In this document: positions 6,676 to 58,684 of the stretch, one piece after another
Numbering within the stretch: position 1 is the stretch's first letter
How the letters are laid out: each line of letters begins with the position of its first letter
NCBI GenBank assembly: GCA_023515725.1
Contig: JALDTO010000146.1
Location: 248,001 to 312,000, forward strand
Direction of reading: 5' to 3'
Source: Amoeboaphelidium protococcarum X5
Lineage: Eukaryota; Fungi; Aphelidiomycota
Length of the DNA stretch: 64,000 nt
Made by a program: the position numbers and the translations under genes
Notes under the pieces: model-generated
The model's input: the letters and a program-made list of their open reading frames with translations, nothing else
The model's database searches: none
What the model was told of the DNA's origin: nothing

Positions 6676-8524
6676 ATGCAGCAAGCTTAGCCCGTTATTG
6701 TCATTAGTAAGTTCTAAATTCCTGCTTAAGTACTCATATCCTGACGCGCGATCTCAACATGTGTAGACTAGAATATTGAGCGCGAACACGGCCACAAAGC
6801 TCAACTATCTAATATTAGTGCTGCAAAGGTGAGTCTCATTCCGGACACTTTCAGTAGACTGATCTTTATATTATGAACGTTATGTAGGCAGTCGCTGATG
6901 TTATCCGTACTTCGCTGGGTCCACGCGCCATGTTGAAGATGCTGTTAGATCCAATGGGCGGCATCGTGTTGACCAATGATGGAAACGCCATCCTGAGGGA
7001 GATTGAAGTGCAACACCCAGCTGCCAAGTCCATGATTGAACTCAGCCGTACTCAGGATGAAGAAGTTGGAGATGGTACTACGTCAGTTATTATTCTTGGT
7101 AAGTTTAAATTCGCTAGTCATTGATGTTTTAACCATTGTATTCATCTTCTATCTATTCAATCCATGTAGCTGGTGAAGTGTTGGTCAGTGCTCTTCCTCA
7201 TTTGGAAAGGAAAATCCATCCTATTGTCATTATTGGTGCCTTCAACCGTGCGCTCTAAGACTTGCGCGCAGTGTTGGATGAAATCTCTATTCCTATCGAT
7301 GTCAAGAATCAAGATCAATTACTTCAGCTGGTGAAGACCACCATTGGTACAAAGTTTGTCAGTCGCTGGAGTGATTTGATGTGTAAACTAGCACTGGATG
7401 CTGTCAAGTGTGTCTCTGTCGATGTCACTGCCACGAAGAAGGAGATTGACATCAAGAGATATGCTCGTGTGGAGAAGGTGCCCGGCGGAGAGATTGAATA
7501 GTCATGCGTGCTGGATGGTGTAATGTTGAACAAGGATGTCACCCATCCAAAGATGCGCCGGTACATTGAGAATCCTCGCATCATCCTCCTTGATTGCCCG
7601 CTCGAGTACAAGAAGGGTGAGAGTTAGACTAATCTAGAGGTGAGTAAGGAGGAGCACTGGAACCGCATCCTGGAGATTGAAGAGGAGCAGATTAAGGAGA
7701 TGTGTGACAAGATTATCGCTCTTAAGCCTGATCTGGTGTTCACTGAGAAGGGTGTATCTGATCTGGCCCAACATTACCTGGTCAAGGCCAACATCACCGC
7801 GATCCGCCGTGTACGCAAGACTGACAATAATAGAATTGCGCGAGCTGTTGGTGCCACCATTGTTAACCGTGTGGATGACTTGAAAGAGTCCGATGTGGGT
7901 ACATAGTGCGGTCTCTTCAAGATTGAGAAGATTGGCGATGAGTACTTCACCTTCCTGGTCCAATGTAAGAATCCAAAAGCTTGTACCGTTCTGCTGCGTG
8001 GTGCTAGCAAAGACATTCTGAACGAAGTGGAGAGGAATCTGATGGATGCCATGTGTGTTGCGCGTAACATCTTCTTTAATCCTCGTCTGTGTCCAGGTGC
8101 AGGTGCGACTGAGATGGCTATTGCTACACGCTTGTCAGAGAAGGCCAAGTCCATGGTGGAAGGTGTTGAGCAGTGGCCATACCGTTCCGTTGCTGAGGCA
8201 TTTGAAGTGATTCCGCGCACATTGGTCCAGAATTGTGGTGGTAATAGCGTAAGAGTTCTGGCTGCACTGAGAGCTAAGCACATGGCTGGTGCACACACCT
8301 GGGGAATCAATGGCGAGTAGGGTGTCATTGCAGATATGAAGGAGTATGGTGTATGGGAGCCGTACTCTGTCAAGGTGTAGACTTTCAAGACTGCTATAGA
8401 GTCGGCTTGTATGCTGCTCCGTGTTGATGACATTGTATCTGGTATAAGTAAGAATAAGAAGGATCAATCCTCAGGTCAACCATCCGGTCCTGCAATGGAT
8501 GCAGATGATCTGGAAGGCCGTTGA
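6676..8524 (+). CDS. CCT3: T-complex protein 1 subunit gamma (CCT3), 3 introns (6707-6766, 6829-6887, 7099-7169)
   Basis: [47 protein letters not shown] and ERNLMDAM motifs. GT...TGTAG introns restore the frame. TGA stop at 8522-8524. Confidence 0.95.
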
Positions 8525-8639
8525 AGCTACTATTGATAACTGCGTAAACTCTGTGACTAATGATAGTAAGTTTTATATAACACACGCATCTTTCGATTGA
8601 ATCATACATACTACAGCACTTACTTGCTTGAATATCTGA

Positions 8640-9630
8640 TCATCCAGTCCATTGAACATGAAAATCATCAATGGTGGAGTAGAGGTGACCATCTTGAACC
8701 ATAGTCTCAATTTCACGAGTAACATCCACACCATGCACATTTTGCCGAGTGAGTAGAGCAGCAATCTGATTAATGTGGACACCTTTATCACCAGCTGACG
8801 TTTAACCACGAACAATTTCAATAATCTTGCGCTGAGTAGGAGTCAATCCGTCATTAAAACTGCCACCACTTCCTTGATTATTATTATTATTATTATTGCT
8901 ATAAGTAGAATTCTAGTTCACAGATTATTATTATTAAGGAGCGGAATAAGGATTTCCAGCAGCACCAGCATTGTTAAACTGCAATGGCTACTAACCTCCA
9001 ATACCACCCATAGGTTGACCGCGAGTTATCTTTAGATGAGTTGCTATAGCCTCAAGATAATGACAGGTGATCTAGTTATGATCGACTATAGGCTAAATCT
9101 TCAAAGCATTCACAAGACGTTTACCATTAACAACGCGCACACTGCCCATCACATAAACGTACGTGTTCTCAGGCAAAATCTCTCTCACACCTAGCAATGC
9201 TTCATTGGCCTTGTTGTCGTACAGACGAACTTCAGCCGAACCAGTTCCATCCTCAATGGTGTACTAAATGCTAGCAGTGGCTTCCTGTGCCTTTCTCACA
9301 CAGCCGACCAGCGACACTACGCTCAGCTCACGACCGTCCAATTCCAGCGAAGATTCTGGATTAGCACTGTACGCCGTGTTCATAATTTACAGAATAGTGA
9401 CCGGTCTCAGTGACTGCTGTGCCCTTTTCTGCCCAGCATTAGCCTACACTGAAGGAGAGTCATAGTTGTTGCCTTGACTCAAAAATCCGCCGTTCCCTCC
9501 CTGGTAGTTGTTACCGGGAGAGGCAAACTGATTCATATTATTATTACCAAAAGCTACAAAATACTAAAGATAAATATCAAGAGTAAACTTCTAAATAATT
9601 TTATATTATATACTTACGTCCAGTAGTCAT
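8640..9630 (-). CDS. RPA2: Replication protein A 32 kDa subunit, intron 9554-9617
   Basis: Gly/Asn-rich N-terminus, QSLRPVTI, OB fold (YTIEDGTG..EVR) and C-terminal winged helix GHLYSTIDDFH. TGA stop. Confidence 0.88.
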
Positions 9631-9919
9631 TTTTATACCTAACTAATATAATAACTGCTTCAAACACCAGCTGAGGAGTCTAACCAAGAAATAGTTCAAC
9701 TTTACAAAACGCGCGCGCGTTGAAACTGGAAAAAGAGAAGAGGCCCTTTATGGCACCGCTCGGATGATGAATTTTCGCTGAAACGGTCGAGACTGAATGA
9801 ATAAGGCTCGAGTATCATCTACCAAGATCCGCGTTGAACCACAAGAATGAATTTAAAAAAAAATAATAATGCAAAAGAGTGTCGTCTTCATGTTTTATCT
9901 ATAGATCAAACAATCTGAT

Positions 9920-10547
9920 TCACATTCTGTATCCAACGGCCCAGCGAAGATGGGCAAATGCGCGGTTATTCAAAGCCTCCCGGTGCATTTCCACCTTGCG
10001 TTGCAGCAGTGGACTCTTTCCCTCCAGAATCGCCAATATCTCTGAGCATATCCTCTCCTCAAGTGGAATAAATGGTCGTTTCTTTTTACTCAGTGACTTT
10101 TTTAGCCATCTACACTAGATAATAAATAAAGGGCATTGGCCTTTTGTAAATTATGCTGATTATCGAAGATGTCATTTAATTAAAGACTTACCGGAACGCG
10201 TAAGACTGACTACGATACTCAGTTACGGGAAGAGGTACCCGAACCAATTTAGCACCGCGTTTGTAAGATCCACATTCCACCACGGGGGAGAGCATCTCAA
10301 TAGCTTTCTCAAACAATTTCACAGGATCATTATTAGTCTTGCTGCGTAATAATTAGAGAGAGTCAGCGACGCTCCTCTCCACCAGTGATCTCTTATCACC
10401 AGTCTTTGTCAGTGTGGCCGCGAATCTACTGACCAGCGTGTGTGGATGAGACGCGTGTCTATGCACCATTGAAGGCACTTTATGAATGATAGAGCCCGAT
10501 TCTTACTAGGCACTCAACAATCTTTTACTGATCCAGAATATCATCAT
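9920..10547 (-). CDS. Mitochondrial ribosomal protein uS7m, intron 10110-10191
   Basis: TKTGDKRSLVE, DPVKLFEKAIEMLSPVVE, KRGAKLVRVPLPVT and HREALNNRAFAHLRW match uS7. N-terminal presequence-like extension. Confidence 0.85.
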
Positions 10548-10712
10548 GTCTTTGTAATAATTATGCTATAAAGTCTTTTGACAATAGCAAAAAGATGGCG
10601 CAAAGATGTGGAAAAACTTATAAGATAATAAATTGTGATTAAAAAATTTAAAACTAAACGATTTTTATCAAAAGAGAATATAAAGAGATGATTTCATGTA
10701 TTATTGGAGAAA

Positions 10713-11045
10713 TCACTTCTTGATCTTTTGTGCCTTGAGTACCTTCTTCACAATCTTCTGTTCCTCAATCAAGAATGCACGTAGAATTCTCTACTTCACA
10801 CAGTCTGCACATCTAGAACCGCCATATGCACGAGTAACATTCTTCTGACGCTTGGAGATCTAGCTGTACTCTCTAGGGCGAAGTGCTGGAATACCGGACA
10901 GTTTGCATCCACAATCTCCACACTTAACACCGCTTGATCTCTTCTTCACATACTGCACAGTCAGAGTGCCACCAGGAGTCTTCAGCTGGCGAATTTTATT
11001 AGACTCAGTGTTATAAGACAATCTACGTTTATATGTGACGCGCAT
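10713..11045 (-). CDS. RPL34: 60S ribosomal protein L34 (eL34)
   Basis: MRVTYKRRLSYNT..KTPGG..CGDC..RPREYS continues through TAG to RAYGGSRCADCVK..RAFLIEEQKIVK. 110 aa, TGA stop. Confidence 0.96.
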
Positions 11046-11359
11046 ATTTATATTTTTTGAATTTATTCTTATTCTTATATTATACTAACTAAGAAATTAC
11101 TGTCTAATCACTGGCGATTCCGAGAGCGATTTGACTGTGCAAAGAATTGTTCAACTTTTGATTAAGGTTAGGTTGAAGAGACTGCGAGTCGCTGTGAGGA
11201 AACGACACACCGCGGAAGAGCGAGAACGATTACAAAATAGGAGAAAAACACGCTTACAACTACAGTAAAGAACTACAGCACATAGAACCTAAAGATAGAT
11301 AGTTGGACATAATTTTTCAGTAAGAGATATAGTGTATTTTAGAGACACTTTGATACAAT

Positions 11360-12136
11360 TCACTTTTTGGCAGGTTCATCCTTTTTATCTGAAGCATTGC
11401 TTGCAGCAGGGATCTACGGTTTCCCTAGTCCAGTCTGCTCCCACGGCGACTGATAATCAAAGTAACGGAACGCCTGAGCCAGTTCAAGCTTCTCAGTGAT
11501 GACGCGCTTCTTCTCTTCATCCCATCTGACTTCAGTGTATCCAGTCAGGGGAAAGTCTTTGCGCAGCGGGTATCCTTCAAAGCCGTAATCAGTCAGTATT
11601 CTTCTCAAATCCGGATGGCCTTCGAAGAAGATGCCGTACATGTCATACACCTCTCTCTCGTGCCAATTGTTACCAGGATATACTTCACACGAGCTGGGGA
11701 TCACGAGCGTGGAGTTCTCATCAGTATAAGTCTTCACCCGCAGGCGAGAATTATACTTGTGAGACAGCAGATTATACACCACCTCAAATCTGTACTTGCG
11801 TCCGGGATAATCAACTCCGGCGACATCGACGCATTACTTGAATTAGCAGGCATGATGCAGCTTCAAGAACTTTAACAGCGGAAGTAAAGATTGAGGATGA
11901 GTGTACAGACACAGCTCGTTCTTATATAGCGATACCTGCTGAATATGTGCCGGGACCATGGACATCAAATACTAACCATATTTATTCAAATCTCCATGCG
12001 AGTGATTAAAATGTGATTCAACTCTTGCATACTAAGCATTGTTATCAGTTGCAGCAGTGGCGAAGAATCTACGGTAAGATGGAGCAACCAGGCGGGCTTG
12101 TCTTTACAAATTACCGCTCCTCAATGATGCAAGCAT
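11360..12136 (-). CDS. NDUFS3: NADH:ubiquinone oxidoreductase 30 kDa subunit (NuoC homologue), nuclear-encoded
   Basis: Presequence; DVAGVDYP; [42 protein letters not shown]. 259 codons ending in TGA. Confidence 0.94.
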
Positions 12137-12262
12137 TTCAATGTCTCTTTAGTATTATTATCGCTATTAAGATAACAGAGAAGGAACAATAATAATATCA
12201 ACGTCTCCTTTACAATTATTAATGACGTTAACGCTCAAAGAAAAGAATGACCAAAATAAAAC

Positions 12263-12283
12263 GAGAGAGAGAGAGAGAGAGAG
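12263..12283. repeat. (GA)n microsatellite in divergent promoter
   Basis: gagagagagagagagagagag between NDUFS3 and the next gene. Confidence 0.85.
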
Positions 12284-12359
12284 CAAAGGTTTTCCATTCC
12301 CAAAATCACATTTGCCACTCGTTGATTAAATTTACTGTCATCTCTATAGTATAGATAAA

Positions 12360-13109
12360 ATGTCTTTTACGCAATAAAGTAAGCGATTACTGTCTAGTAC
12401 TCCAATGGCGAGGATGCCACGTCTGTATGAAAAGATTATGACGCCTCCCACTCTGCTTAATAGATTAACACCGGCAACCGTTGAGAGGATGGAGAACGCG
12501 TCTGCGAGTAAGCCATAGTCGCGTACTAGGAGTCTGCTGACTGAATAGAGAAGATAAGCCCGATTGCGGAAGAGATATGGCTAATTCTATGATAGATTTG
12601 TGGCTGCTGGATATCCTGACCGCGTAAGATAGTAGTAACACGTTGCTTTTGAACACGCTCAATACCATTAGACGTTCCCCGTTAATCTTACTCAGACCGA
12701 TGGATCTACAGTGACATATCAGTCGTGTCTAAAGATTGGAATTAAAGCGGGAACTCCGATTATCAAATAGACTGATATAATGGGTAAGATTGAGGCTGTT
12801 AAAGACACTATTAGCCATCCGCTGTGGAATGACGTTGTCGGTGGTAAAGATGATATGGTGGATGCAGCGAATGAGTCTTTTGCGCGCTTTAGATCTAAAT
12901 ATGAATCAGCTGCAGGTGTCGCTGATCTTACGGCTGATGATAGTGAGTAGTTGGAAGTTACTTAGGATGATGGTAAGAAGGCCAAGAGAGAGAGCGTTCA
13001 AGATGTATTGGCATCTCTGTCTGTAGATGAGAGTCTGAATTCACTTTTCGAGGTTCAATAGAAGAAAATTACCACCAGCTCCCAGCAGAAAGGCAAGCGT
13101 AGAAAGTGA
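12360..13109 (+). CDS. Mitochondrial ribosomal protein bL31m (yeast MRPL36-like)
   Basis: Basic presequence, then FPVNLTQTDGSTV..KDTISHPLWN, resembling the fungal bL31m DGST/HPLWN motifs. 250 codons ending in TGA. Confidence 0.65.
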
Positions 13110-13219
13110 AATTTATAAATGATTTGAAAGCGATAATACCATTAGATGGAATACTTTAATCTTATTACTGTACGATCTCACTAGGAATCAGAAAGTTTAA
13201 CTTATCATATTAGAATCAC

Positions 13220-14356
13220 TCAAACGAACTGAGCCAAGTTAACAACAAATGCAATGTTCAACTGGGTAAAGGATACCATGTGATCAAAATCCAACTTCTC
13301 AATAGTGTCTCTAGGACTATGGATGACAGGATTGATTTCTCTGAACAGGCCTTCAAATGGAGCAGCACTAGCATAACCAGCCTTTGTCCAAGACGCGTGA
13401 TCGGAACAGCCATATCCACACTTGGTATCCAGCGGCTTCTCATCAGTGTACTTGGTAATCCAATCCTTCAACTTCAGAGTCAACTGCGGGTTAGTGAAAT
13501 CATTCAGCACACCAATATGGCGATTACCAGAGCGACGAGTCTGTGGATCAACATATCCAGTCATGTCATTCTAGATCATTGCGATAACTTTACGACCCTC
13601 CTGAGCATAAGCCTTAGCCACATCCTGGCTGCCCAGCAGACCCAGCTCTTCAGCGGCATACCAGTGGAACTCGACATCATGCAGGGGCTGAAAGTCATCA
13701 TTCAGAGACAAAACAGTGAACGCCTCCAGAGTAGAAGTAGTGCCAGATCCATCATCATCAGCGCCAGGAGCTTTACCAGCACGGTTGAACTGATTAATGG
13801 AATCCTGGTGTGCACCGATAATCACACTCTCATCCGACTCCCAAAACCCGTGAATCTTGGCGATAATACTGAACTGGGCAAACTTGTGAGTGAACTTTGA
13901 GACGGTGATGTTCAAATGACTCTCTGCTGCAATTTCATTAACGTAATCAAACAGAAACTGGGCAGACTTGACACCATCACCGCCAGTATATCGATTATGG
14001 AAAGATGAGAATTTCTCCAGGAAGGATCTCATACGCGTCTGGTTAATATCCCTATTGAAGTACTGGTCCATGAACTGACGCGTTGGCTCACTATCCTCCG
14101 CCTTGAAGGTAATAGGAGCGTGCACTACCAAATTACCAACAGCAGCAAGATCCTGATTATCAGTGATATCCATAAAACCGATATTATTCTAGATCAGGGT
14201 GTCGATCTCTTGCTCAGTCATCCATTGCTGTTCAGTGGGGCTCAACTCAATGAGACGAAAGTCATTCTACTGCAGAGCAATCTACTACTGTCCAGGGATA
14301 GCGATGGCATTAATCGCGCAGATAGAGGACGCCCAGAGCGCAATCAGATTATTCAT
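13220..14356 (-). CDS. Secreted leucine aminopeptidase, peptidase M28
   Basis: Signal peptide; GFMDITD; GAHQDS; APGADDDGSG; YAAEELGLLGS; (TAG=Q)NDMTGY; CGYGCSDHASW; IHSPRD. Alternative start at 14365. Confidence 0.92.
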
Positions 14357-14739
14357 AATATACATGCTATACTAATAAGCTTTACTGTTAGAAGATAAAT
14401 AAATGGTATAAAAAGCGGGAAAGAGTAAGGTTGATCTCAAGGGCGAAGAGAAAGAGCGTATTTCATCAAAGGGGGGGGGGTTCGCTCGATCTATCAGGGG
14501 CTTTTCATCATCTGTCTGATCTATATGATAGAACTAACTGGAGCAGATAATATACCGATGCTATTAACTGTGTTTAGGAATAGCTTAATAATAGGGGACT
14601 GTGATATATATATACAAAACATCATTTCAATGCTCAAAAGCTAATGATGAAAGTCAACTTTGTCTTGTTGAATCTACTGCAATAATCAAATATCATTCAT
14701 TAGTAGAATTCGTGCGTTTGATCGACCTTAATCTTATAC

Positions 14740-15430
14740 ATAATAACTAGCCTGCTCTCCCGCAACTCCAAAACTCATTCTGCGTATTCGCTGACTGCTT
14801 TAGATGATTCAGTATGGTCAATTCTATACATTCAATGAGTTATTAAATGCGTTGGTACTGTCTCCTCCCTGTGCTGTGACATTCTCACAATTAGAATGTC
14901 TTGGTAGGATATTCTAAAAATTAGACCACTCGCTCAATTTGCCAAATCTCATACTGATCATTCACTGACCACTTCAGAGTATTAAGGATGCTTAATTATT
15001 TATGTTCAAGAAGTTTTTAGTTCCCGGAAGTTGTCTAATTAATGTGCTGTCACATTCTAGTTATTAGAATTTCTCGGTCGTATATTCTAAATTCTAGAAT
15101 GATCTCTCACAGCTCCAACTCTGATGTTGCGCTCTCGTTGGCTGTCTTAGATGATTCAGTATGGTTAATATAGTATATTCAAGTAGTTTTTTAAGTGTTT
15201 TGATGTTGACTACTTAGTGCGCTGTTACATTCTAATCTGTGGAATCGCTCTGTTAACATATAGTAAACGCGCGACGCTGATATTCTAATAACTAGACTCC
15301 GATCCCTCAAAACCAAACGTCATGCTGCGCATTCGCTGATTGCTGTGGGTGATTCAGTATGCTTAATCTTGTGTGTCTAAGTAATTTTTAAGTTTGCTAA
15401 AGTTGCCTAATCCGTGCGCGGTCATAATAA
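14740..15430 (-). repeat. Four degenerate tandem copies of a ~173-nt unit, probably a decayed repeat-protein pseudogene
   Basis: Motifs GATGATTCAGTATG, GTGCTGTNACATTCTA and ATATTCTAA recur at ~172-174 nt spacing (last spacing ~198). Minus-strand translation gives related peptides interrupted by frameshifts and TGA. Confidence 0.7.
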
Positions 15431-15558
15431 AACTAGAGATTAGAAACACTTGACAATTTTCGAAAGTTAAGAATTCACCTTCATCAAACCATTTTGTACT
15501 AATACACATCGATAAATAATATACAAACCGCAAACAAGACAAATAAAATACCATGAAA

Positions 15559-17517
15559 TCACATACATTCAGCTGGGACAGTCTTGTCAGCGCGACCACC
15601 TCTCTTAGCCTTCAGTCCCAATCCTCTTCTGCCAAAAGTGTTCCAGATCATGCAATAGTTTTCGCCATTAAAGTTGACTTCATCAGCTTTCAAAATTGCA
15701 TCACGAGCATCGACAAACGATGGACGACATGGTTGTAGTTTCATGCCATCAATAACATTCTTCATCAATTTGATATTTCCAGCCAGCGAATCTCTTGCAC
15801 TGACATTCTTGAAATCGCGAATGGAATACCAATCCTTGTTGAAACCATACTTGTTGACGAATGCCCAGTATAGATCATACAGCATTGTTGCCCATACGGT
15901 ACCAATTGAATGCACCTGACGGTACTCTCTCATCACATTACCATAGTGCAGCGGGTTAATGCTCATATCTATAGCATAAGGATACTAACGGATACCTCTG
16001 CCGGCAGCGTACTCTCCCAGTCTCACAATCAACTTATCAGTATCAGTCTCCTTCATACGTAGTGAGGTGCCCACAAAGTCAGACCAAGCCTCACCAAGTC
16101 CACCAGACTCTCCAAATCCAAGACAGTTAGAATTGGCCGGACCTCCAGTGAGACGAGTAGAGATGCCATGAGTGTACTCATGAATAATGATATCATTTTC
16201 AAAGTCACCATCTCTCATAGGCTTATGCATGTTCCACACATACATTCTCATTCTGCCCTTAAATCCATCTGGAGGAGATGCAAAGTTGGCATTATTATAG
16301 CCTGAGCCATCTTGAGCATTGGCAATTACAGCATCGTTTCCTCTGCCACCTCTATCAAAATTGTCTTCCTAAAAGTTGCCAGACTATTCATCAAATCCAA
16401 ATAACAGAAATATGTCATGTACAATGTTGTTGTAGTAGAACAGATTATCAATCGAAGCATTGATGTAAGTGTCTGGCTGCTTGGACAGATCAAGGTCATG
16501 GTTGAAAGTCTTGACATTATCGACGATTTCAGCCTTTGGACGATAGCTGTTCTCAAAGTTACCGCGACCATTTGGATTAGACTGCGCATAAACATTATTA
16601 CCTGCAGTCTGCAACTGGAACTTGGCACGTCTCGAGTCACTTTCATCAAACATCCAACCTTTAGGAGATGCGTACTCATCTTCAGGATCTCTCACCACGG
16701 CGCGTTCTCCATCCGTAGGATCATTCACACCCACAGGATAAACGTTGTAAGCAGTGGCTTCACTAACCCAGTCAACCAGTTGTAAAACATTGCCGCTCAT
16801 ATCCATCTGAACATTGAACCAGTTATCTTGATCAGCCATATCAGCAGAAATGTCCCAAACAGGAACTATACGCTGCTCTTCGATGATCAAGTAACGTTGC
16901 ATCATCTTGACTTCATTATCATTGGCAAAATCAACATTGGTCACCACAACTACAGCCTCATCGTCGTTCTCAGTCTGACCAGGGAAGACAGAGTCGTCAT
17001 TATTCAGCAGAACAGTGGTCAGGAGAGACTGATCTGGAGTAGGCACTTTAACAAAATCTGCCAGCTTGATCACAGCCTGTACAGGGTCCACAGGCTGTTT
17101 CATCACAAACTGATCCTCAGAATCAGAAGCCAATGACTAATCTTCAGGTACCTGGTCACCTTAATAGAATGTATGATACATTGACAAGACACGGCCGAAT
17201 TCATCAACATTGATATTAGCATCGGCATTCACAATCTCAGCCCCATCATAAATTTAACTCAAGTAGACATGAGTTACACCATTGTCACTCTTGTAATGAT
17301 TCTTCACCTTGAAAGAGTAGGAATCAGAAGTTGTTACAGCCTTCTCAAAGAACGTTGTTGCAACAATCAGCGGATCGGTTGAAGTGGCCTCAGTAAGATG
17401 CGCATTCAAACTGGCCCCTGCAAAAGACTTGGTTTCAATTTGAGGACCAAATCCAGATATTTGCAGCCTGCTAGTCACAACAGAAGCAAGAGTTAATAAA
17501 GATACCACAGACAACAT
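15559..17517 (-). CDS. Fungalysin metalloprotease (peptidase M36) with FTP propeptide
   Basis: Signal [14 protein letters not shown]; NGVTHVYL propeptide; GFDE..GNFQ; [18 protein letters not shown]; GLGEAWSDF; [12 protein letters not shown]. 653 codons ending in TGA. Confidence 0.94.
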
Positions 17518-17833
17518 ACTAGATAATATGAGAATTCTAAACAAGTATAAGTACAAGTAGTAGAATGATAAGATGAGATGAGATAAGATAAGATAAGATG
17601 GCCGATGGGGACGATGACTCCAAACTTTAGAGTTTCGCGTTCTGAAACAACATCTCTGTTTCATTCAGGCAAGAAATTTCAATCTCGCGTTGGTGGTAGT
17701 TTTCCCATACAGAAAAGTGAACGGGTGCGATGCTATTAACAAGCTGACCAATAGTAAGAGCACTGAATTAAAAGAAAACAGAAGGAGAACAATAAGCACT
17801 ACAAAGCTAATATGAAACACTAAACTTCAAATA

Positions 17834-18496
17834 TCATATAGTGGCAGCTGTGATTAATTCACCATCCCAATTTGATTTCTCTGCAGCGTCCATCATAACG
17901 TGAGCCGCGTCCTCGTATGAAACATGATCACCACAATCACGATTGATCTTTGGTATTATCATAGGAGAGGATTTCTTTCCCTTGCCGCTCATATAGCCGG
18001 GGCAAAACACCACATAATTAATACCAGTTGCGCGAATAGCATCGATACACTTTCCGTGCGCGATAAAAGCTTCTTCTGCAGGAGGCCAAGAAGATATGAT
18101 TTTCTTCCACATTGGAGTCGTGCCATCATTGTCCATGATGTTGGTTAATCCGGCAACATGGACGATCTTGTTTACACCTGCGGCCTTTGATTGTTCAGCA
18201 ACGGTTCGGGCAACATCTTCTGCGCCACCGACTCCCATCAATACCACATTGTTACCTTCACATGCTTTCTTCACAATATCAGTATCTGTGGCTGCATCGC
18301 CGATATAGATATTGGACGCTGGCAAAGAGAAAACAGTATCGGCAAATACAACCGCCAACTTATCTTAGTTCCTTACTAGTACCGATAGAGAGTGCCCACG
18401 AGCAAGACATTCATGCACCAAGCTCTTTCCAAGACCACCGGTAGCACCAACCACTAAAATGGAAAGAGGTTTCTGATTAACGGAGGATGCTGACAT
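17834..18496 (-). CDS. Atypical SDR NAD(P)H-binding protein (BLVRB/NAD_binding_10-like)
   Basis: ILVVGATGGLGKS Rossmann motif; LVRN(TAA=Q)DKL; GDATD-like segment; VSYEDAAHVM. Intronless. Confidence 0.82.
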
Positions 18497-19199
18497 CTTG
18501 TTAAAATGGTTGATTGATTGAGAGAAAACGCGAAAACGCTTTTATTTAACGAAGCTTTGTCGGCTCGTAAAATTCGAGTCTCCTGCTTTGTCTGATCAGC
18601 CCTAAAGAACACAGACCACATATTTCCCGGGCCTGTAATGAATCGTGATCCGAAGTGATTCAGGAATTTCTTTGATCTTGATGGAATGTTTGACGAATGT
18701 GAGTATAAACGTTGTGGTTACAAGCTGTTATTTCTTTTTGGCGAGGAGTTTGGTTGAGAATAAAGGTGATATAATAGTGATATTGAGATGAGCCTATAAA
18801 GTTCTACTTTCAGAGTATACTGATTCTATCCGCGGTGAAAACGTTACAGGACTTAAAGCCACATATCAACTTTTGTTCAATTAATAAGTAATAGGAAAAG
18901 TCTTACTTGAATATTCAGATGTCGATTAAGAGTCGAGCTTTTCATATTGGCAAATAAAGAATTGCCTATCGAATATCATGCGAAACTGATACTGTTTATT
19001 AAACGCTAGGATCTTTGAATTCGGTTTTATTAGCCAAGCGATTCTACACGAAGAGCAGGCGTAAACTAGCCATCACAACACTAATCAGCTAGCGTAACAA
19101 CTGAGATTAAAAGGGTATATAAACAAGGACATGAAAATTGCATTAAAATCCAAAATTAAACAATATTGCTAATTAGACTTCTCAAAAACTATATTGTGA

Positions 19200-19775
19200 T
19201 CAAATAAGAGCAAGTGCACCCAGGATACCAGCACCCGCTGCAAATACTGAACCAGATAGAGCATGACCAGCGGCGCGTCTAAATGGAGTAGGCAGTATCA
19301 CAGTGGACGATGTTTATGGCTGGACATTGTTGATCGGTGCGCCATTGAAGACCACAACGACATCGGTAGGGATTACAGATGGAAGCACATCCACAGTTGT
19401 AGTAGAAGGAGTAATGGTAGTGAATATTGTAGTGGCAGTGAGCGCAGTTTCCGTAGTACCAACTATTGATGTGACGGTAGTTGAATCAAACACAGTGGAC
19501 GTTGACGCAATGATGGAGGTTGCGCTTGTCTCCACGGCATTCACGGTAGATGTACTCACAACAACTTCGCTTGTCACAACAGTGGAAGCGATATCAGGAA
19601 GAGTGGCAACACTCGTGACTACAGACGAAGCTTCGACCACAGCGGTAGACACTACAACAGCATCACTTGGTGTAAAGGAAACCACCTCACTCACCACTGA
19701 CGCGACAGGATCTGAAGGCGCTTAAGCCGACACCATCGCCGCGGCTATCGTAGCAATGACAATACAAAACTTCAT
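19200..19775 (-). CDS. Secreted Ser/Thr/Val-rich, putatively GPI-anchored surface protein
   Basis: Signal MKFCIVIATIAAAMVSA, S/T-rich body and hydrophobic C-terminus VFAAGAGILGALALI before TGA. Confidence 0.8.
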
Positions 19776-20030
19776 TTTTCAATTCTAATACGGGTATATA
19801 ATAATTTCGCTGACAGTTTACAACTCCGTGAATTTAGAAAGATAATCTGACGCGTTTTGCAATTGGATTGGCTCAAGTCTTGGCAAGCGCCTCCTGATTT
19901 TTCAGGGACTCGTTACACGGTAAGGCCATTCGGCAACTTACTGCGCTGAAATTGAGAGAAGATGACCTATGCATTTTCTGAAACCAATGTTTCCATTAAA
20001 CTGAATAAACACAAATGAACTTTATTTAAA

Positions 20031-20811
20031 TCATTTGCCGTGTCTTTACTCTTTCCTGTTGTACAAGTACATTGATCGATACAAAACGAACTCGTTAATT
20101 TGAGATTAGAACGGAAAATGGCTACATATATTTAGATCATTACTATAGTCAATTAAGTAATTACAAATTACATTATAATACTTACATTATTTCTGATTAT
20201 CGAGCAGATAGAGGCTACATTCCAGATAATCGCAGTACTGATGACTTTGGCGACACCACAATAATCAAGTCATATTCTTTAACATCTACACCTCTATTAA
20301 AGACAGTAAAAAACTGACGATCACCACAATCGGAACTAAACGTACCTTATTCAACTTTAACATATAGCGGTTAAACTTTCAGGAAATTCGCGCACTTTTT
20401 ACCTTCGATTAATTAAAAACTTGACGGCAAACTTTCACGATACCCATATAGATCGACGGAAGATACAAGCATGCGCGCTCGCCATTGTTAGAGCGCGACT
20501 AATTCATATGTGGAGACAGGCCGACCACGTCTTTTCAAATCGCTGCACTTGCTAGATTCTTCTCCTTAGCCACAAGGATAATCATCATCATCCAGCAATA
20601 TTGCAACGTGTCGAGGAACTTTTGTGAATGATTCTCCTGGCAGAAAGTAAAATCGGTATAGCCACAACGCATAGACAATATAGCATTCAACTTGGTCTCT
20701 CACTCGTTCAACTAAATAGAAAGCTTTAGAAAGTAGCCCAACTAGATACAACAAGACCCAGGGATAAGACTTATGCTCCAGACGACTACTTTATTACTAC
20801 TCCACAGACAT
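20031..20811 (-). CDS. NUS1: Dehydrodolichyl diphosphate synthase subunit NUS1/NgBR, intron 20122-20185
   Basis: N-terminal TM, KVPRHVAILL, EYDLIIV..LSGMQP and C-terminal E(TAA=Q)RHGK-stop (RxG motif). Confidence 0.82.
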
Positions 20812-20904
20812 TCTATAAATTGACTAATTATTAAATCGCGAACTTAAATTGTATCAAAAAATCAAAATGGATAAGGAAGGAAACCATCAAGATTAAAAGC
20901 ATCA

Positions 20905-28457: not shown

Positions 28458-30703
28458 ATGTCTGGAAGCAATAGTTAAACTTCTTGGGATAGTAATTTTT
28501 GGGTAAGTTTCCATCTAGTTGTTTCAATCTATTAATGACATACATTGAGATTCCAAATACTTAACGATGATGAGTGTAGGGAGAGGGTAATAAAGGATTC
28601 GCAGTTGTTGATAATAGATTGGAGGAGGGATTTAATTCGCTGAATGAATTTTCAGGATATTTCGGTAATCGTGCCAAGCTGGAGACTGAGTATGCAACCC
28701 ATCTGGAGGCATTGGCCAAGAGTTCTGCTTTCAAGGCAGATCATGGTACTCTTAAGGCTGTGCTGGACAAGCTGATTGTCACAACTCATCAACTGAATGA
28801 GATGCATTTATCATTTGCCAAGAAACTCATCCAAGATGTCGATGTTCCGCTGGGCAAGTTTAAGAATGCACAGCGTCAGTTGAAGAAGCACCATGAGGCA
28901 GAGATGGATAAGGCGACCAAGAATGTCCAGAAGGAGGTGCTTAATGTGGACAAGTTGAAGAAGGATTACTATGCCAAGTGCAATGCCATGAAAGCTGCTG
29001 TACAGACTGCTGCCAAAGGTCAGACTGATCGTATGACCAAGAAGGAGTATGAGAAGATTCAGGAGAAGGCTATCAAGGCCAAGAAAGATGTGGACACCTC
29101 CGAGTTGGAATATAAAAATGCCGTCAAGAAGTATGAGCAGGCACAGGATGTCTGGGATGAGAAAATGGCTCAGGCTGCATAGGAGATTTAGCGCAATGAG
29201 AATGAACGTCTTGCTTTGATAAAGTCCACTCTGGCCAACATTTTGGATGCCCAATTGAAGATGATTAGTGATGCTCATGTGAAGAACATCAGCGATCTTC
29301 GCTAGTCTGTAGAGTCTATCAATGTGGATACCGATATGAATGAGTGGATGAATAAGAATAAGACTGGAGATGTGAAGGCTGTGCGTATAAAGTTTGAGAG
29401 TTTCTTTGGTGATGTTGCACCGAAGAAGGCTGCCATGATCCGCTCCTCCAGTCAGCGAGGTGGATTGAATGGCAGTCAGGGCGACTTGCTGTCTTAGACT
29501 TCATCCCAGGCCGGCATTAATCGCAGCAAGACTAATTTGCTGTCGAGCATTAAGGCAGCTAAAGAGAATGAATCCAATGCTGCTCTCCACGCTAGTGGTA
29601 GTAGCTCTAATGTGAAGGCTGCACTGGCTGCTCACTTGCTTTAGAGCTAGAACTCTTCTTCTGGTGCTGCGATTAGTGAAAATGATGTCAGTCGTGCACG
29701 TTTCTCTTTGAAGAATTTGAGCATTGCAGGTAACAATAACTAATCCAATTCGAATTTGAGCTCACCTCTATCTGCAGTCGCGGCAGTGGCAGAGAGGCCG
29801 CAGTCAGAAGAGTAGCCATCACGATAGGCTGAGGCCGCCCCGGAAAATTCTCAAAAGTAGGAGGAATCCAGCGATAAAGCCCCTGCTGCTAGTAAGAATG
29901 AGAAAGTGGAACAAGTCAAAGCTGCCGGCGAAAGTGCTAGAAAGCTCACTATTGAGACTCAATAACGTCCGACTGATCTTGTAAAGGACGTTGTAGCTGC
30001 TGAGGAGTAGCAATAGCAATAAGAGACAGCCAAGGCTGCAAAAGATGCTGAAGATTCTTAAAATACTGCTGCAGCTGCTGAAAATAAGAGACAGTCTGCA
30101 TTAAAGACCGGTGACTCTGGATTTGGTGCATCTCCAATGACTGCCAGTGTATCTGCTCAAGCTTAGAAATTTGAGCAGGCCGCTTAGTCTCATTCTGCTG
30201 CTACTGCCACATCTCCTATTAGAGAGACAGCGCCTCAGTTGAGTGCTAGCGAGAAGAAGCCTGCCGAGTAGTAGCAATCCTCAGAGTAAAGTGCGAAGGC
30301 GTAGAATCCTCAAGTTGCTGCTGTAGCTGCAAAGGAGCGCGTGTTCACCAGACGATCCATCAAGATGGAAGGATGGATGGATGTGTGTGACGATAGCAAC
30401 AAACAGTGGGTCAAGCGTTGGTGTGCTCTAGAAGGTGGCTATATCTGGTTTTTTGAAGATCAGGCAGATAACAGTAAACCATAGGGAATGAATAAGCCTA
30501 AATCTATGGCCAGCGTGGCCAAGAGTACTCTATCTAGAGGTAATCAGGTGCAAGGTTGGGAAGTGCCAGATGTTGCTGCAAAAGGTCCTCATCTTTTGAC
30601 TCTGAATGTTGGCGGCAAGAGACAGATGCTCCTCTCGTGCACTGATGAAGATGACTGCAACTACTGGTACGAGCAGATTGACTCTGTGATTAAGAAGAAG
30701 TGA
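28458..30703 (+). CDS. F-BAR domain protein (Cdc15/PSTPIP-like) with C-terminal PH domain, intron 28503-28579
   Basis: NFW|GEGNKGF across the splice, RAKLETEYA and long coiled coils. The C-terminus (KMEGWM..WVKRWCAL..CTDEDDCNYWYEQI) is a PH fold. Confidence 0.85.
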
Positions 30704-37352: not shown

Positions 37353-37438
37353 TGATCTTTTTGTACAATAAATATAAAGTTGCTTTTCTAAAGTTATTAT
37401 TCAGCCGCCATGGGGACTGGTTATCATCAATCTTTCAT

Positions 37439-40956: not shown

Positions 40957-41419
40957 TGTTCATTATAAGATGGTACATATATTAGGTCGAATTCGCTATT
41001 GTTGTTGTAGATATCGCATAGAACGTTAAAGGCGTATTGTACATCTCGGAGACAATGCTATTATGAGCCTGCCTTGAAACGCTCCACCAACCCTCTATCT
41101 GTGAGCCAATTTTCTTAAATCAATCGGCAGCTATTTTTACTCCAACTTAGATTTCTAGCAACTCCTTGGAAGTATTCATTTCATTAAAATTGAGTGATGT
41201 GATATTTTTAGCCTTCATCATTAATTGTTGTGTTGTTACAGCTACCACATTTATATTTTTGCGGTTGAGAGGCAGACTCTATCTTTTGATTGTATTCGCT
41301 ATTAATACATCATATATACTCTCTGTTGATATTGTGACCGAGTCAACTAATATTGCTTTATTGACAAGTCTCTTGCATTGATTAAGATTGATTAATAAAA
41401 GGATTTCTGAATACTGAAA

Positions 41420-43738
<2,319 letters not shown>

Positions 43739-44216
43739 AGATGCCGTTTGGTCAGTTGTGTGTTAGTCAAATGATTAAATCAATGAGGAACAGTGAGGAT
43801 GAAGTAGGTGTGATGATGAATATATATTTTAGTGCTATAATCTTCCCTATAAGAGAGCAATGATGTGGTAGATTTTCACAGTCAATCACTCGACTCGACG
43901 GTCCCAAATCATTCAATGACAGTTCACGACTTTATAGTGCCTCAAATTACGTGAGTCTGCTTCACCTTTCTATGTGACTGTGCTCTGTGCAACACCAATT
44001 TCTCGTGAATGCAACAGCATGATTTTGAGTGGCCAATCAGAGACAATTGCAGGTGCCACATAGATTAATATCAGCCAAGCATTTAATTTTCCGTGATCAA
44101 CGAGTAACATAGACTTGAGCTACCCATCCGGCACTTCCTTTGTCCTGTGATACAATCGTCTTTATATTCACATTCTACTGATAAAAGATACAGATTATAT
44201 ATATACATTACTAGAT

Positions 44217-45953: not shown

Positions 45954-46413
45954 TACTTAAATGCAATTTTAATTTTTTAAGCTATCATACCGATTAGTTT
46001 GTTTTTCATTGTATAGAATTCTATCTTGGTATGTGCTAATACCGTAGTGGTTATATCGAAGTGACCATTCTGCAATCTGCGACGTGTTTTTACGCGCCTG
46101 GCAGGCATTGTTGTACACTTCTCTCTTATATGATCTTCAAAATTAATCAAAAATATCGCCAAGACCTAAACAGTAGTTTGGTGTTACAAAAATTTCACTA
46201 TTGGTATCACCATATCAAAACCGGGACTGGCTCATTGTGGTGTCACTTGAGATTAATGTCCAATCAGTCACGAGCCAAGCCAAAGATGTGACCCAAACTG
46301 TTATATTAAGCCCTCTGTTGGTCATTGCACTATTCCTTTACTACAAATACTTATATTGATATATAAATCATCTGTGTTTGTTTGTTATTTATATATCTCT
46401 GTGTAATTCAAAC

Positions 46414-48675
46414 ATGTTTCAATATATCATTAAATCCTTGGTGTCGGCAGCGATGATCATGTCTGCCTTCACACAGGCTCAGTCTTAATGTGCAGGCGGC
46501 GTTCGTGGTCGTTACAGCTGGGACGATCTAAGTCAATCGTAAATCGACGATTACCTGACAACATTGCGTCAGTATATTGATAGCGGCTCTATGGAAGTAA
46601 TGGTGAGAGCGCATTTCGATAACTATGGTGCTTGGCACAGTAACCAATTTTTCTTCCCTATCCACCGTGAATTGCTGCGTCGTTATGAGGCTGGTCTCCG
46701 TAGCATCAATCCTAATGTCATCATTCCATACTGGCAGTGGTCAAACGATGCTGCTAATCCTAATTAAGCGCGCATCTGGCAGTCCTTCAGTCGGAATGGG
46801 CGTAATCCTGCTAATGATCGTATTCTTGGCCAATTGCGTATGAATGTGTAAACTCCTCACCTTCTGGTACGTGACCTGCAGCCTAATGGTCTGAGATCAA
46901 ATTCTCTTGCTAGCTTGCGAACCGTTGAGAATCAGATCACCATGAATGATTTTCAAAATTTTAGCCGTAACTTTGAGTTTGGTCCTCACTATCTGGTGCA
47001 TGTCAATGTTGGCGGTCGCACGGGTGATTTGGCTTTTGAATTCTCTCCTAACGATCCTATCTTCTGGCTGCATCACGCCTACTGTGACAAGGTTTGGTGG
47101 TAATGGCAGAATTATGATGGCGCTTCTCGCTTCAACGTCTTCTACGGTGAGAGCCAGTATCGACGTAATGACAACATTACTGCTTCAATGCCTCTGCCTG
47201 GCTTGGGTGCAGCTACGACTTAGTAGCTATTCAATGTGCATGACTCTTGCTACACTTACGTCCCTCCTGGAACTCCCGCAACTTCTGCACCTCTGCAAAA
47301 CGCGTCTCCTCAAAATGACATCATCACCGTGGCGCGTGAAATGAATATTGTCCCCAATACTCCTCCTGCTCTATCTTCCTCAGCTTTGCCGCCGGCTAGC
47401 AGAACTATGTTCTCTACTGCGGTAGAAAGCAGAACTCGTGGTCAACCGCTTTCAACTAGTGCAAGGTCAACGAGAGCTAGAAGCAGTTCGCGCCCATGGG
47501 ACGACAGACAATCATCTGTGTCTCCATTGCCATTATCCACTCCATTATCCGGCTTTATGTCTACTACTATTGGTATGTCTCAATCTCCATTGCCATCTGA
47601 TAATGCATCCTCTGTCTCAAATTACGAGTATTTAACTAGCAGAACCACTATAATGCCTACCTCTGTTTAGAGTGGAGATGGTTGGAATACTCCTGTCCAG
47701 ACTCCACCTTCTAGTGACCAATGGGGAGCTCCTGGTTCTCTTACTTCGTCTCGCTTTGGTCCAGAAGCGACCGCTCTACCTGGCACCCCAGGCACTCCTG
47801 GTACACCTGGCACTCCCAACACTCCTGGCACTCCAGGTGCTCCTAACACTCCTGGTGCGCCTGGTACACCTGGCACTCCCAACACTCCTGGCACTCCAGG
47901 TGCTCCTAACACTCCTGGTGCGCCTGGTACACCTGGCACTCCCAACACTCCTGGCACTCCAGGTGCTCCTAACACTCCTGGTGCGCCTGGTACACCTGGC
48001 ACTCCCAACACTCCTGGTACACCTGGCACTCCCAACACTCCTGGTACACCTGGCACTCCCAACACTCCTGGTACACCTGGCACTCCAGGTGCTCCTAACA
48101 CTCCTGGCACTCCTAACACTCCAGGTACACCAGATACACCTGGATCGCCTGGCTAGCCTGGTTCTGGTGGTAACTCATCGGCTCCTGGTGCTCCTGGCTC
48201 GAATGGTAACGCCCCAGAAGAGTACTTTATTCCAGATTGGGCGCTCGAGCGCAAGCCTTAAATCGCTGATGGTATTCGTAATGCTATCAGCTTCTTAAAT
48301 GAAGCCAGCAGGCCTAACTTTATGAAGAGATACGAAGATTGTATCACCCTGCCTTCCGTGTTTCCTCTCCCTAATGGTAAAGATGTCAATAAGAAGACTT
48401 CTCTATCTTACGGTGCTAATGGAACTGCGCACCATAAGAATGCCGGCGCTAACAATGGCAACGCTGGATCCAACAGCTCTGCTATTCCTTATAAGACGAG
48501 CGCTGTAACTGCTTAAGCGACTCCAGCCGATGGATAGCAACCGGGATTGGGATCAAGTGTTGCAGTTGGCGGAGATTCGAGCGGTGCAAACGCTTCCTCC
48601 GGGTCCAAGACACTTTTCGCTCAAGGTCAAATTATCCTGGTGATTACTGTTGCTTCTTTGATGTACTTATTATGA
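46414..48675 (+). CDS. Second tandem secreted, GPI-type tyrosinase with Ser/Thr and PGT-repeat stalk
   Basis: Signal peptide; [16 protein letters not shown]; [28 protein letters not shown]; hydrophobic C-terminal tail; TGA at 48673-48675. Confidence 0.87.
47778..48150 (+). repeat. Coding minisatellite of 9-nt units (PGT/PNT/PGA) with 63-nt and 27-nt higher-order repeats
   Basis: cctggtacacctggcactcccaacact blocks are repeated almost perfectly. Confidence 0.9.
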
Positions 48676-48934: not shown

Positions 48935-49923
48935 ATGTCTACCGTAAGTCTTTTCTATTTGAAACAAGTTGTATCAGATGTTGTATTGTGTAGAAGTGCC
49001 AAGTTTGCGAGAAGACCGTGTATCCAATGGAGATGGTCAAGATTGACGACCTTACTCTGCACAAGACCTGCTTGAGATGTGCGCACTGCAACAACCAGTT
49101 ATCTCTGGGTAAGTATGCTGCTATCAACGGCAAATACTACTGCAAGCCGCACTTCAAGCAACTGTTTGCTCTGAAGGGAAACTACACGTCCGGGTTTGGT
49201 GAAAATGACACTGGCGCAAGCTCATCCCTTGGTGGCGTCTAGTTCAAGGGCCTTAACAACAACAACAACTCCAACGCTGGCAGCGAATCCAATCCTAAGC
49301 CGCTAGCAAACAAGAAGGCTGCTTCAAGCAATGCTATGGCTAAGGTTGGCTCGACTGCCTCTGTGCATGATGGCTCAAATGATGAGATCAAGGCAGTGTC
49401 AAGAGTCGCTGAAGGCATTCGCGCGTCCATCGAGAATCTGAAACAGACGGCCGCAAAGTCGTCCAGCAGATCTGAATTGCATCACCAGGGAAGCAAGTTG
49501 CGTATCTCTTCTGCCAACGATCTGGACTATGCATCTGGTGATGGAAAGAACACTTAGTAGTCTGTGAGAGCGAAATTCAACGCTTAATCTTCTGCTGCTT
49601 CCGGTGGCACCACTAATAAGTGTGCCGGCTGTGAGAAGACAGTCTTCCCTATGGAGCAGATCCAGGTGGAGTCGATTGTCTACCACAAGTCATGCTTCAG
49701 ATGTGCCCACTGCAACAACATCTTGAAGCTGGGCAATTACGCAGCATTGGACTCCAAACACTACTGCAAGCCTCACTTCAAGTAGTTATTCGCTCTGAAG
49801 GGTAACTACAATGAGGGATTTGGATCACGTCCTCACAAGGAGAAATGGAATCCGAAAGATTTGTCTCAGTCTCAGTCTGAGCTGGAACAGGCACAAGAGA
49901 AGACTGCTCCAATGTAAGTGTGA
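48935..49923 (+). CDS. Two-LIM-domain protein (EPLIN/LIMD2/plant-LIM type), intron 48944-48993
   Basis: Two copies of CxxCEKTVxPME..HKxCxRCAHC..[16 protein letters not shown]. Ends at TGA 49921-49923. Confidence 0.9.
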
Positions 49924-56627: not shown

Positions 56628-56880
56628 CTTTATTTATTTGATCAAAAGGTGGAGTAATATACAACTTACACACACAATAATAAGAATGATGCGGGCGGCC
56701 CGGTTGAAGGAGGAAAGAGAGTAACGAGTACTGTAAGAACGAAAGTAAAGAGGGAACGAGAAGGAACGCGCGAGAGAGAGAGTGCCGCGAACGATCTCAT
56801 TCAGCAAAGTTGAATAGAATCTGATTGAACAAAGAAACGCGCACAATTTTTGATTGTAGAGTAATACACAGTAGAGTATA

Positions 56881-58684
56881 ATGTAGAAGTTGATGACTGC
56901 ATCTTCAACTAGATTCGCTCGTACTAGGTAAGTTTTCTTGTGCTCTCTCTCTAATATGCTAATTATTGATTAATTAATTGTAGTTGGCGATAAACTTTAA
57001 ATACCTAAAGGTGGGTAAAAAGTGGTTCTTAAACTGCGTCCATCTCTGAGAGTTAGTCCAATGTCTTAAATTTACGTATCAGCGATCTGAGATAGGACAC
57101 GGAAATTGATATTCCGTCTGATGGTTAGGTGATGCTTAGACAAGTGAGAGTTCATGCTGTGCGAGTGACTAAACGTAATTGCTTTATCATACTCCGCTAG
57201 GGTGGCGAGACACTATAAGCTATCGTGTCAATAGATTAAACTGGATCCACTGCTTCGCTCTATGAATAGTGCTTACAGTAAGTGTTGTATTAAATCATTA
57301 TTCGATTCACTGTCACTTACTAAATTGCACATTGTAGATTAAGAATAGAGTCAATTGTAAATGTTCGAGGTAGATTGGTTCCGCTGGGAAACTAATAGAG
57401 GATCAAAGCATGTACTGTACATGGATATGAATTACACGCGACATCAGTTGATATCGTCAGTGCTCCGACTGTTGATAAGTTGCCATTCAGTACTGCAGAT
57501 GCTAATATTGTCGATCGTATCCACTTGGACACTCGTCTAGATAATAGAGTACTAGATCTCAGGGTAAGAATATCAGGTGTATAATCCCTCTTTAATGTGC
57601 ATATGATTTATTAATGAATATAATTGATGTGTAGAGCAGTGTTAACTAAGCCATATTCTCTATTTAACATGGCGTGACTTAGGCGTTTAGATCGTTTATG
57701 CTGTAGAATGACTTTATTGAGATACATACACCTAAATTGATATCTGCAGCCAGCGAAGGTAGTGGCTCCAGTGTATTTAAAGTTGACTACTCTTTTGGCT
57801 AGTAATCTTAGAGTGATGAAGCACCCTAGTCTAATACATAATAGGATGGAGTGAATAATAGTGCTGCTACTTAGCAAAATACGTAAAATGCATTTTTAGC
57901 TCAGTCTCCATAGCTATACAAGTAGATGATGATCTGTGCTGATTATGAGCGCGTCTTTGAGATTGGACCAGTGTTCAGGGCTGAGAACTCTCATACTCAT
58001 AGACATTTGACTGAATTCACGGGACTGGATTTTGAGATGTAGTTGAGAGGTGATGATGCTGTGGATGAAGCTGTTCATATGATAGACCGTCTGTTTAGAT
58101 TTATTTTTACCGCGCTGGATGGTGAGTACAAGCAGTAAATAGACACGGTGCATCGGTCGTTCTAGAGTTAAGCCTTCTAATTATCTAAAGAGACTCCGAT
58201 ACTGGAGCACAGAGATGCTGTCTAGATGCTTCTAGATGCAGGTGTACACATGGACCCGATGGATGATTTTAGTACAGAGAATGAACGACAGCTTGGGCGT
58301 CTAGTGAAAGATTAGTTCTAAACTGACTTTTTCATGGTGAAGAAGTTCCCACTGGAAGTGAGGCCATTTTACACAATGCCGTATTAACACAGTGATGATA
58401 AACACCACCTTTACTCGCTGTCTTATGATGCATATATGAGAGGGGAAGAGATACTGTCTGGTGCATAGCGTATTCATGATTACCAGATGCTTGCTGATAG
58501 AGCTGAGAAGAAGCGTGTTGATGTGAACTAGATTCAGAGCTACATGGATGCTTTCCGCTACGGTGCGCCACCTCATGCAGGTGCTGGTATTGGCTTGGAG
58601 CGCGTGGTGATGCTCTATCTCGACTTGAAGAATGTCCGCCGCTCTTCACTCTTCCCGCGGGATCCCAAGCGTATTTCACCATGA
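56881..58684 (+). CDS. Aspartyl-tRNA synthetase, eukaryotic/archaeal type, with N-terminal presequence-like extension; introns 56928-56983, 57278-57337, 57564-57634
   Basis: [24 protein letters not shown](TAG)LYK(TAG)[34 protein letters not shown](TAG)[16 protein letters not shown] and LFPRDPKR. Confidence 0.93.

Follow-up and report, generated by a model that had tools for sequence, protein, structure and literature searches.

The 64,000-nucleotide (nt) stretch analysed here, positions 248,001 to 312,000 of contig JALDTO010000146.1 of Amoeboaphelidium protococcarum X5 and called the window below, carries among its protein-coding genes those for the chaperonin gamma subunit CCT3, RPA2, a ribosomal S7-family protein, an F-BAR/PH protein, a protein kinase, a LIM-domain protein and an aspartyl-tRNA synthetase (AspRS), which are interrupted by short introns. 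The thirteen introns found in the window are ordinary GT-AG spliceosomal introns, and all of them end in the five-base word TGTAG. Translated with table 6, the large CCT3 exon matches a deposited A. protococcarum protein at 100% identity, and the protein group that it matches has four members, every one from this species. Both TAA and TAG encode glutamine (Gln) here, and long frames appear only under such a reading. Across 23 genes (12,993 codons; two more genes were excluded owing to a frame slip), Gln is written 178 times as TAA, 256 times as TAG, 172 times as CAA and 238 times as CAG, which makes the first-pass annotation, where only TAG had been read as Gln, incomplete on this point. The reassignment of UAR to Gln in A. 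protococcarum has already been published (PMC5304391).

The introns are documented by transcripts, by protein-guided alignment and by reading frame. Contigs of four runs (X6, X8, X9 and X11), which belong to one study whose record does not state the kind of run, were aligned over two regions of the window, 2000-21500 and 27900-47550. They are taken as transcripts because they skip introns, have loose poly(A) ends and are uneven in depth, and since they are mostly 90-95% alike to the window they come from another, related strain. Over 27900-47550 the table of joints is full for all four runs, and its three rows consist of two GT..AG joints at listed introns and one replaced stretch, with no further intron from transcript joints in these 19.65 kilobases (kb). 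Over 2000-21500, 15 of 38 joints are listed, with DNA runs mixed among them; among the joints listed, runs X8 and X11 support all six introns annotated earlier in this region, plus a seventh joint at 20286-20345. The first-pass annotation had counted twelve introns of 50-82 nt, all ending in TGTAG; each of these intervals does start with GTAAG or GTGAG and end with TGTAG at its coordinates, and the lengths are correct, but the total was too low, as the thirteenth intron at 20286-20345 was found in RNA. RNA support thus covers eight of the twelve and the thirteenth, and all nine (9/9) end in TGTAG in the window DNA. The spliced aligner, which could choose any AG, was used with 40 CCT3 proteins and with 60 non-aphelid AspRS proteins.

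Positions -5 to -1 read TGTAG in 13/13 introns, no base is fixed further upstream, and every intron contains exactly one TGTAG. Measured against the base composition of the introns themselves, the invariance has p = 2e-12 for G at -4 and p = 1e-5 for T at -5, and p = 0.018 for T at -3 given a pyrimidine there; G is the scarcest intron base (12.6%) and is still fixed at -4. The absence of CAG acceptors reported at first pass holds (0/13). The acceptor had also been written as (A/G/T)TGTAG; position -6 is indeed G, A or T in 13/13 (six G, four A, three T), but the absence of C is not significant (p = 0.12). Throughout the window, 10 of 37 GTAAGT sites have a TGTAG ending 35-130 nt downstream, compared with 7% of random positions.

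As a control, 80 metagenome CCT3 loci were run through the same aligner, 58 of which contributed introns (L079, with two spurious 399-nt calls, was omitted). TGTAG ends 12 of the 207 distinct CCT3 introns obtained, the remainder ending in various YAG words (Y, pyrimidine), which differs from the 9/9 of the window with a Fisher p of 1e-10, the control loci being mutually related and not independent. The control is mostly ascomycete, and therefore fungal rather than aphelid: in a quick tree of the 18 long-enough loci among 24 picked, 17 fall with ascomycetes and L061 forms a long branch. An aphelid CCT3 comparator was not found among the 80 loci, none of which exceeds 75% identity, and a CCT3 search of a viral collection gave no match. 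An early-branching, ascomycete-like clade among these loci (L058, L059, L060, L071 and L072) has CCT3 introns of only 32-61 nt and leans partly to TGTAG (6/20) under the standard code.

Introns of the window, with positions counted from its first letter and the evidence for each
Gene	Position	Strand	Ends and length	Phase or frame	Evidence
CCT3 (chaperonin gamma), intron 1	6707..6766	+	GTAAGT..TGTAG, 60 nt	phase 1	RNA joint; aligner 24/40 proteins
CCT3, intron 2	6829..6887	+	GTGAGT..TGTAG, 59 nt	phase 0	RNA joint; aligner 34/40
CCT3, intron 3	7099..7169	+	GTAAGT..TGTAG, 71 nt	phase 1	RNA joint, 2 runs; aligner 37/40
RPA2	9554..9617	-	GTAAGT..TGTAG, 64 nt		Pfam RPA_C; RNA joint with replaced letters
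Ribosomal S7-family gene	10110..10191	-	GTAAGT..TGTAG, 82 nt		Pfam Ribosomal_S7; RNA loose end
Gene at ~20.0-20.8 kb, second intron	20122..20185	-	GTAAGT..TGTAG, 64 nt		RNA joint 20121-20189, 3 letters between
Thirteenth intron, overlooked earlier	20286..20345	-	GTACGT..TGTAG, 60 nt	in frame, stop-free	RNA joint, 2 runs
F-BAR/PH gene	28503..28579	+	GTAAGT..TGTAG, 77 nt		RNA joint in 3/4 runs; Pfam FCH, PH
Kinase (Pkinase, UBA, KA1; MARK/Kin1-like)	41618..41686	+	GTAAGA..TGTAG, 69 nt		RNA joint in 3/4 runs
LIM-domain gene	48944..48993	+	GTAAGT..TGTAG, 50 nt	after codon 3	frame only; Pfam LIM
AspRS, intron 1	56928..56983	+	GTAAGT..TGTAG, 56 nt		frame; deposited A. protococcarum models P0124-P0126, which depend on gene prediction and are not independent evidence
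AspRS, intron 2	57278..57337	+	GTAAGT..TGTAG, 60 nt	in frame, no TGA	aligner 46/60
AspRS, intron 3	57564..57634	+	GTAAGA..TGTAG, 71 nt		aligner 59/60 non-aphelid proteins

Some joints are supported in a less direct form. At RPA2, the 34 letters lying between the ends of the RNA joint 9548-9637 fit the exon junction 9553/9618; in the ribosomal S7-family gene, the RNA loose end at 10192 matches the other exon (10100-10109); and the fourth run shows a loose end at the kinase intron. Three aligner runs of 40 took a nearby GGCAG as the acceptor of CCT3 intron 2, and AspRS intron 2 shows as a gap against solved structures. A different RNA joint, 20287-20416 (128 nt, two runs), has AC..TA ends, shares its acceptor side with the intron at 20286-20345, and perhaps stems from a second copy of the gene that has diverged, or from the use of another donor. 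Pfam and PDB searches gave no match for the gene at ~20.0-20.8 kb, which we take to be NUS1-like.

Several neighbouring features were recorded along the way. The AspRS gene (56850-58684) is a divergent copy, ~53% identical both to fungi and to the same-species AspRS P0134, with paralogs nearby, and its Arg/Ser-rich N-terminus presumably resembles an organelle-targeting leader. Between 44151 and 48675, two divergent head-to-head genes, both transcribed, encode secreted proteins with His-rich motifs, which we assume to resemble those of tyrosinases, and Pro/Gly/Thr repeat tails. At 60275-62374, a frame of 699 amino acids, coiled at its N-terminus and weakly matching AAA/ATPase, stops soon after a second P-loop-like motif and is possibly truncated. 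A repeated element at 14700-15450 stands out in DNA runs by its elevated depth and numerous joints. Over 2000-21500, a DNA run of the same sample contains two haplotypes, one 99%+ and the other 90-95% alike, which fit the genome duplication described for A. protococcarum (PMC10608142).

The anatomy of the introns is that of the major, U2-type class, with GT..AG ends spliced from mRNA and donors of the GTRAGT class: GTAAGT in nine, GTAAGA in two, and GTGAGT and GTACGT in one each of the thirteen, the commonest control donor accounting for 36/207. A minor, U12-type identity was considered and rejected, as the GTATCC/ATATCC donor occurs in 0/13; that type is also defined by a strong CCTTRAC-type branch point (PMC7367187). 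The branch motif CTRAY is present in 3/13 introns, where shuffles expect 1.9 and the controls have it in 78% (p = 9e-5), and CTAAC in 0/13; candidate branch motifs are spread from -7 to -40, and no position is fixed between -25 and -6. The lack of a clear polypyrimidine tract noted at first pass is confirmed, with a pyrimidine fraction of 0.52 at -20..-6 versus 0.59 in the intron body, and a search for intron-end pairing gave no fold common to the introns. Nearer YAG words are bypassed in favour of TGTAG, namely TTTAG at -10 (9554-9617), TCTAG at -5 (10110-10191), AATAG at -8 (20286-20345) and TATAG at -21 (20122-20185), and a rule that takes the first YAG at least 40 nt from the donor fails in 4/13, all four of them RNA-supported. 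A donor and a TGTAG are not always spliced, since the pair at 29892 (+) in the F-BAR gene (GTAAGA..TGTAG, 105 nt, GC content 0.44) is left unspliced in contigs of three runs; TGTAG alone is insufficient, and short length and low GC content seem to be required as well. The donor..TGTAG pairs at 12943, 12973, 19694, 27016, 51784 and 62319 were not called introns; each lies inside a continuous frame or at its end.

Extended acceptors are rare. In a survey of 50 eukaryotes, Irimia and Roy (PMC2483917) reported five exceptions to a plain YAG acceptor: three species in which branch point and AG are fused, a weak CGCAG in Ostreococcus, and TTTCAG in Caenorhabditis elegans. Trichomonas vaginalis, Giardia lamblia and Yarrowia lipolytica resemble the present case in being intron-poor, with a fixed 3' end and no tract, but there the branch point and the AG are fused, with a constant spacing (PMC2483917). 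A branch-point-anchored acceptor of this kind was rejected for the thirteen introns, in which the ACTAAC-type motif is absent (CTAAC in 0/13) and the fixed bases begin at -5. Ostreococcus lucimarinus shares the five-base format and a purine at -4, although its CGCAG is weakly preferred and has C at -5 and -3, where T is invariant here (PMC2483917). In Paramecium and Nyctotherus, introns of the form GTA..TAG likewise have TAG-dominated acceptors, and Paramecium also reads TAR as Gln, but only three bases are constrained, the introns are ~25 nt long and such acceptors also occur under the standard code (PMC9612004, PMC2633312). The closest likeness is to the UUUUCAG/R of C. elegans, an extended, near-fixed acceptor of short introns with an invariant U at -5, which corresponds to the T found in 13/13 here (PMC4889670, PMC2483917). 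In the nematode, the U at -5 is the most conserved base, almost invariant, U2AF binds the motif and there is no branch-point consensus (PMC4889670); in A. protococcarum, CTRAY is not enriched and the looser YTRAY reaches 10/13. Acceptors of the nematode type are bound by both subunits of U2AF. The two differ in that A. protococcarum has G at -4 and T at -3, with no pyrimidine run or UUUUCAG/R octamer, and in that it is intron-poor with strong donors, the U2AF reading being drawn here from DNA anatomy. As for density, the window has ~0.26 introns per kb of coding sequence, compared with intron densities of 2.5 in Rozella and 3.9 in chytrids (PMC8476143). A gene without introns at 10714-11100 (-), which we assume to be ribosomal protein L34-like, is in keeping with heavy intron loss.

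Recognition of TGTAG early in splicing, by U2AF, is the reading favoured here, because the fused branch point is absent and the layout matches that of the nematode. On balance, it is somewhat probable that a protein binding exactly UGUAG marks the 3' end early, and this protein would most likely be an altered U2AF, a step that we infer. In an intron-poor genome, the 3' information would have shifted from the branch point and the pyrimidine tract to the five-base acceptor, and U2AF sitting on UGUAG would place U2 on a degenerate upstream branch point, as in C. elegans. G at -4 would also suit a stacking contact with Prp8 at the second step, which may explain why this base is G and not a pyrimidine, and selection by such a reader would push each old intron independently to one ending. 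The first-pass proposal of an altered, nematode-like 3' recognition finds support in the anatomy (invariant -5 to -1, weak branch point, no tract, skipped YAGs), while U2AF as its reader stands as a proposal. Several points weigh against the early reading. Branch points retain some signal, being slightly enriched for YTRAY (10/13 versus an expected 6.2; p = 0.026, from a set of four patterns examined), and introns with a skipped YAG within 12 nt (3/13) do not significantly outnumber those of the controls (14/207, p = 0.07). The large subunit of U2AF would need an altered specificity, as UGUAG is no pyrimidine tract, and an Rfam search of the 64-kb window gave no match, so that no small nuclear RNA was seen in it. 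Genome-wide, the share of TGTAG has a 95% lower bound of 0.72 from the RNA-supported introns or 0.79 from all thirteen; the transcripts come from a related strain, with the acceptors read in the window DNA, and the joints listed over 2000-21500 are 15 of 38. The finding is real, within the limits of thirteen introns, a single window and a reader deduced from it.

The main rival to this early reading is a late one, at exon ligation, where the alpha-finger of Prp8 would stack best on G at -4; with Prp18, FAM32A, SDE2 and Slu7 lost or weakened, only self-docking acceptors would be spliced, and early recognition would lean on the strong donor, the short length and AT richness. In the human spliceosome, F1509 of Prp8 stacks on the base at -4, with G as the best, and sites with G at -4 depend little on exon-ligation helpers (bioRxiv 10.64898/2026.08.05.741260). 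This preference of Prp8 speaks for late docking, as do G at -4 being the least expected of the invariant bases here and the use of the -4G site by splicing in TCTAG/TGTAG and AATAG..TGTAG. However, section 7 of the same preprint describes no contact with -5, which is invariant in these introns, and holds CAG to be strong (10.64898/2026.08.05.741260), an acceptor found in 0/13, and the placement of U2 on weak branch points would be left unexplained. Late docking is regarded as unlikely on its own, and it may operate jointly with early reading by U2AF. Alternatively, TGTAG might be merely the commonest form of a milder TGYAG or GTAG bias, of which the window is a lucky or filtered sample. The number of introns is small, twelve of the thirteen were chosen by a reader who had spotted the motif, the lower bound lies at 0.72-0.79, an unrelated fungal clade has a partial TGTAG bias, and the joint 20287-20416 is unexplained among the 15 of 38 joints listed for its region. 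Nevertheless, the intron found blind (20286-20345) has the TGTAG ending as well, no other acceptor appears in the full set of joints over 19.65 kb, and a coding-potential scan found no unexplained frame switch in the genes, although this method is rough and missed in-frame introns. Such a sampling effect is considered quite improbable.

A link to the genetic code had been suggested at first pass, namely that the fixed acceptor offsets exonic TAG decoys created by the reading of TAG as Gln. In a broader form of the idea, the TAR=Gln code would have driven the tightening, either by adding TAG decoys to exons or because introns left in the mRNA now rarely hold a stop and escape nonsense-mediated decay, which makes mis-splicing costlier. 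Exonic TAG does reach 15.7 per kb, against 9.1 were Gln codons CAR; five of the thirteen introns, if retained, would have no in-frame TGA, and three of these would stop under the standard code, while two also have lengths divisible by three. In addition, the deposited model P0127, a paralog of this AspRS, is shorter by precisely the 24 residues between the normal acceptor and the TGTAG that follows it, a Leu-Gln codon pair in the window, so that decoys made by Gln codons do exist. Compared with window positions 57564-57706, the model joins at CTG TAG, past an in-frame CTTAG; its gap is either a real use of a Gln-made decoy or the product of a predictor trained on TGTAG. The decoy hypothesis is nonetheless poorly supported. 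In 39 kb of coding sequence, YAG words number 31.1 per kb with or without recoding, because a Gln codon is YAG as CAG or TAG alike; TGTAG is not significantly depleted from exons (34 seen versus 41.5 +/- 5.5 expected from synonymous shuffles) and is no rarer there than other NNTAG words. With recoding, exons contain 34 TGTAG words instead of 15, and they show no avoidance of donor..TGTAG pairs (4 observed versus 2.4 expected). TAG acceptors make up 70-76% in Paramecium, which has the TAR=Gln code (PMC9612004), and 46/48 in Nyctotherus, without that code (PMC2633312), so that ciliates favour them either way, and the fungal clade that leans to TGTAG uses the standard code. The link is thus weakened; the code is probably not the cause, and a driving role for it is quite improbable. 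Still further from the evidence is the idea that a single mobile element (introner) gave rise to all the introns, whose ends would then be alike by descent, or that AT-rich mutation produced the ending as a side effect. Introners are alike along their full length and occupy new, lineage-specific positions. Here, the 5' and 3' ends are common to all introns and the lengths are similar, but the bodies resemble one another no more than shuffled sequences do (best pair score 30; shuffled maxima 19-30). All three CCT3 positions, the ones compared among the thirteen introns, are ancient: codon and phase at (9,1), (29,0) and (100,1) are common to ascomycete loci, that of intron 2 to L060 and that of intron 3 also to 36 distinct control introns with mixed acceptors. 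Neither body similarity nor new positions (0/3 for CCT3) being found, introners are already largely refuted, and mutation bias is hard to reconcile with the fixation of the rarest base at -4; both are extremely unlikely. Ancient positions combined with unrelated bodies indicate that introns of ancient origin have come to the same ending by convergence, and this suggests selection exerted by the splicing machinery.

A full-text literature search found no account of such a TGTAG acceptor among the papers listed, although the primary A. protococcarum genome paper or its supplements may describe it, and the word 'intron' is absent from the Aphelidium genome paper (PMC10608142). It is conceivable, although unlikely, that the major spliceosome was rewired genome-wide to a fixed UGUAG while U2AF changed to match and branch-point or exon-ligation helpers were lost, all on the branch where stop codons were reassigned to Gln. 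If true, this would be a purine-containing acceptor code unlike the five exceptions among 50 eukaryotes (PMC2483917). The TGTAG acceptor would add one more rare extended acceptor, in the sister group of fungi, and one that is U2AF-like and not fused to the branch point, although lineages with few introns tend to reinforce the branch point. The standard code is used in A. occidentale, Aphelidium and Paraphelidium. Sequenced close relatives offer a natural experiment on which residues, in U2AF or in the alpha-finger of Prp8, read positions -5 to -3, and the same relatives could show whether a change of genetic code reshapes splice signals. Finally, since an intron that is free of stops and a multiple of three in length was overlooked here by reading frame alone, a TGTAG rule would improve the gene models of this algal-pond parasite.

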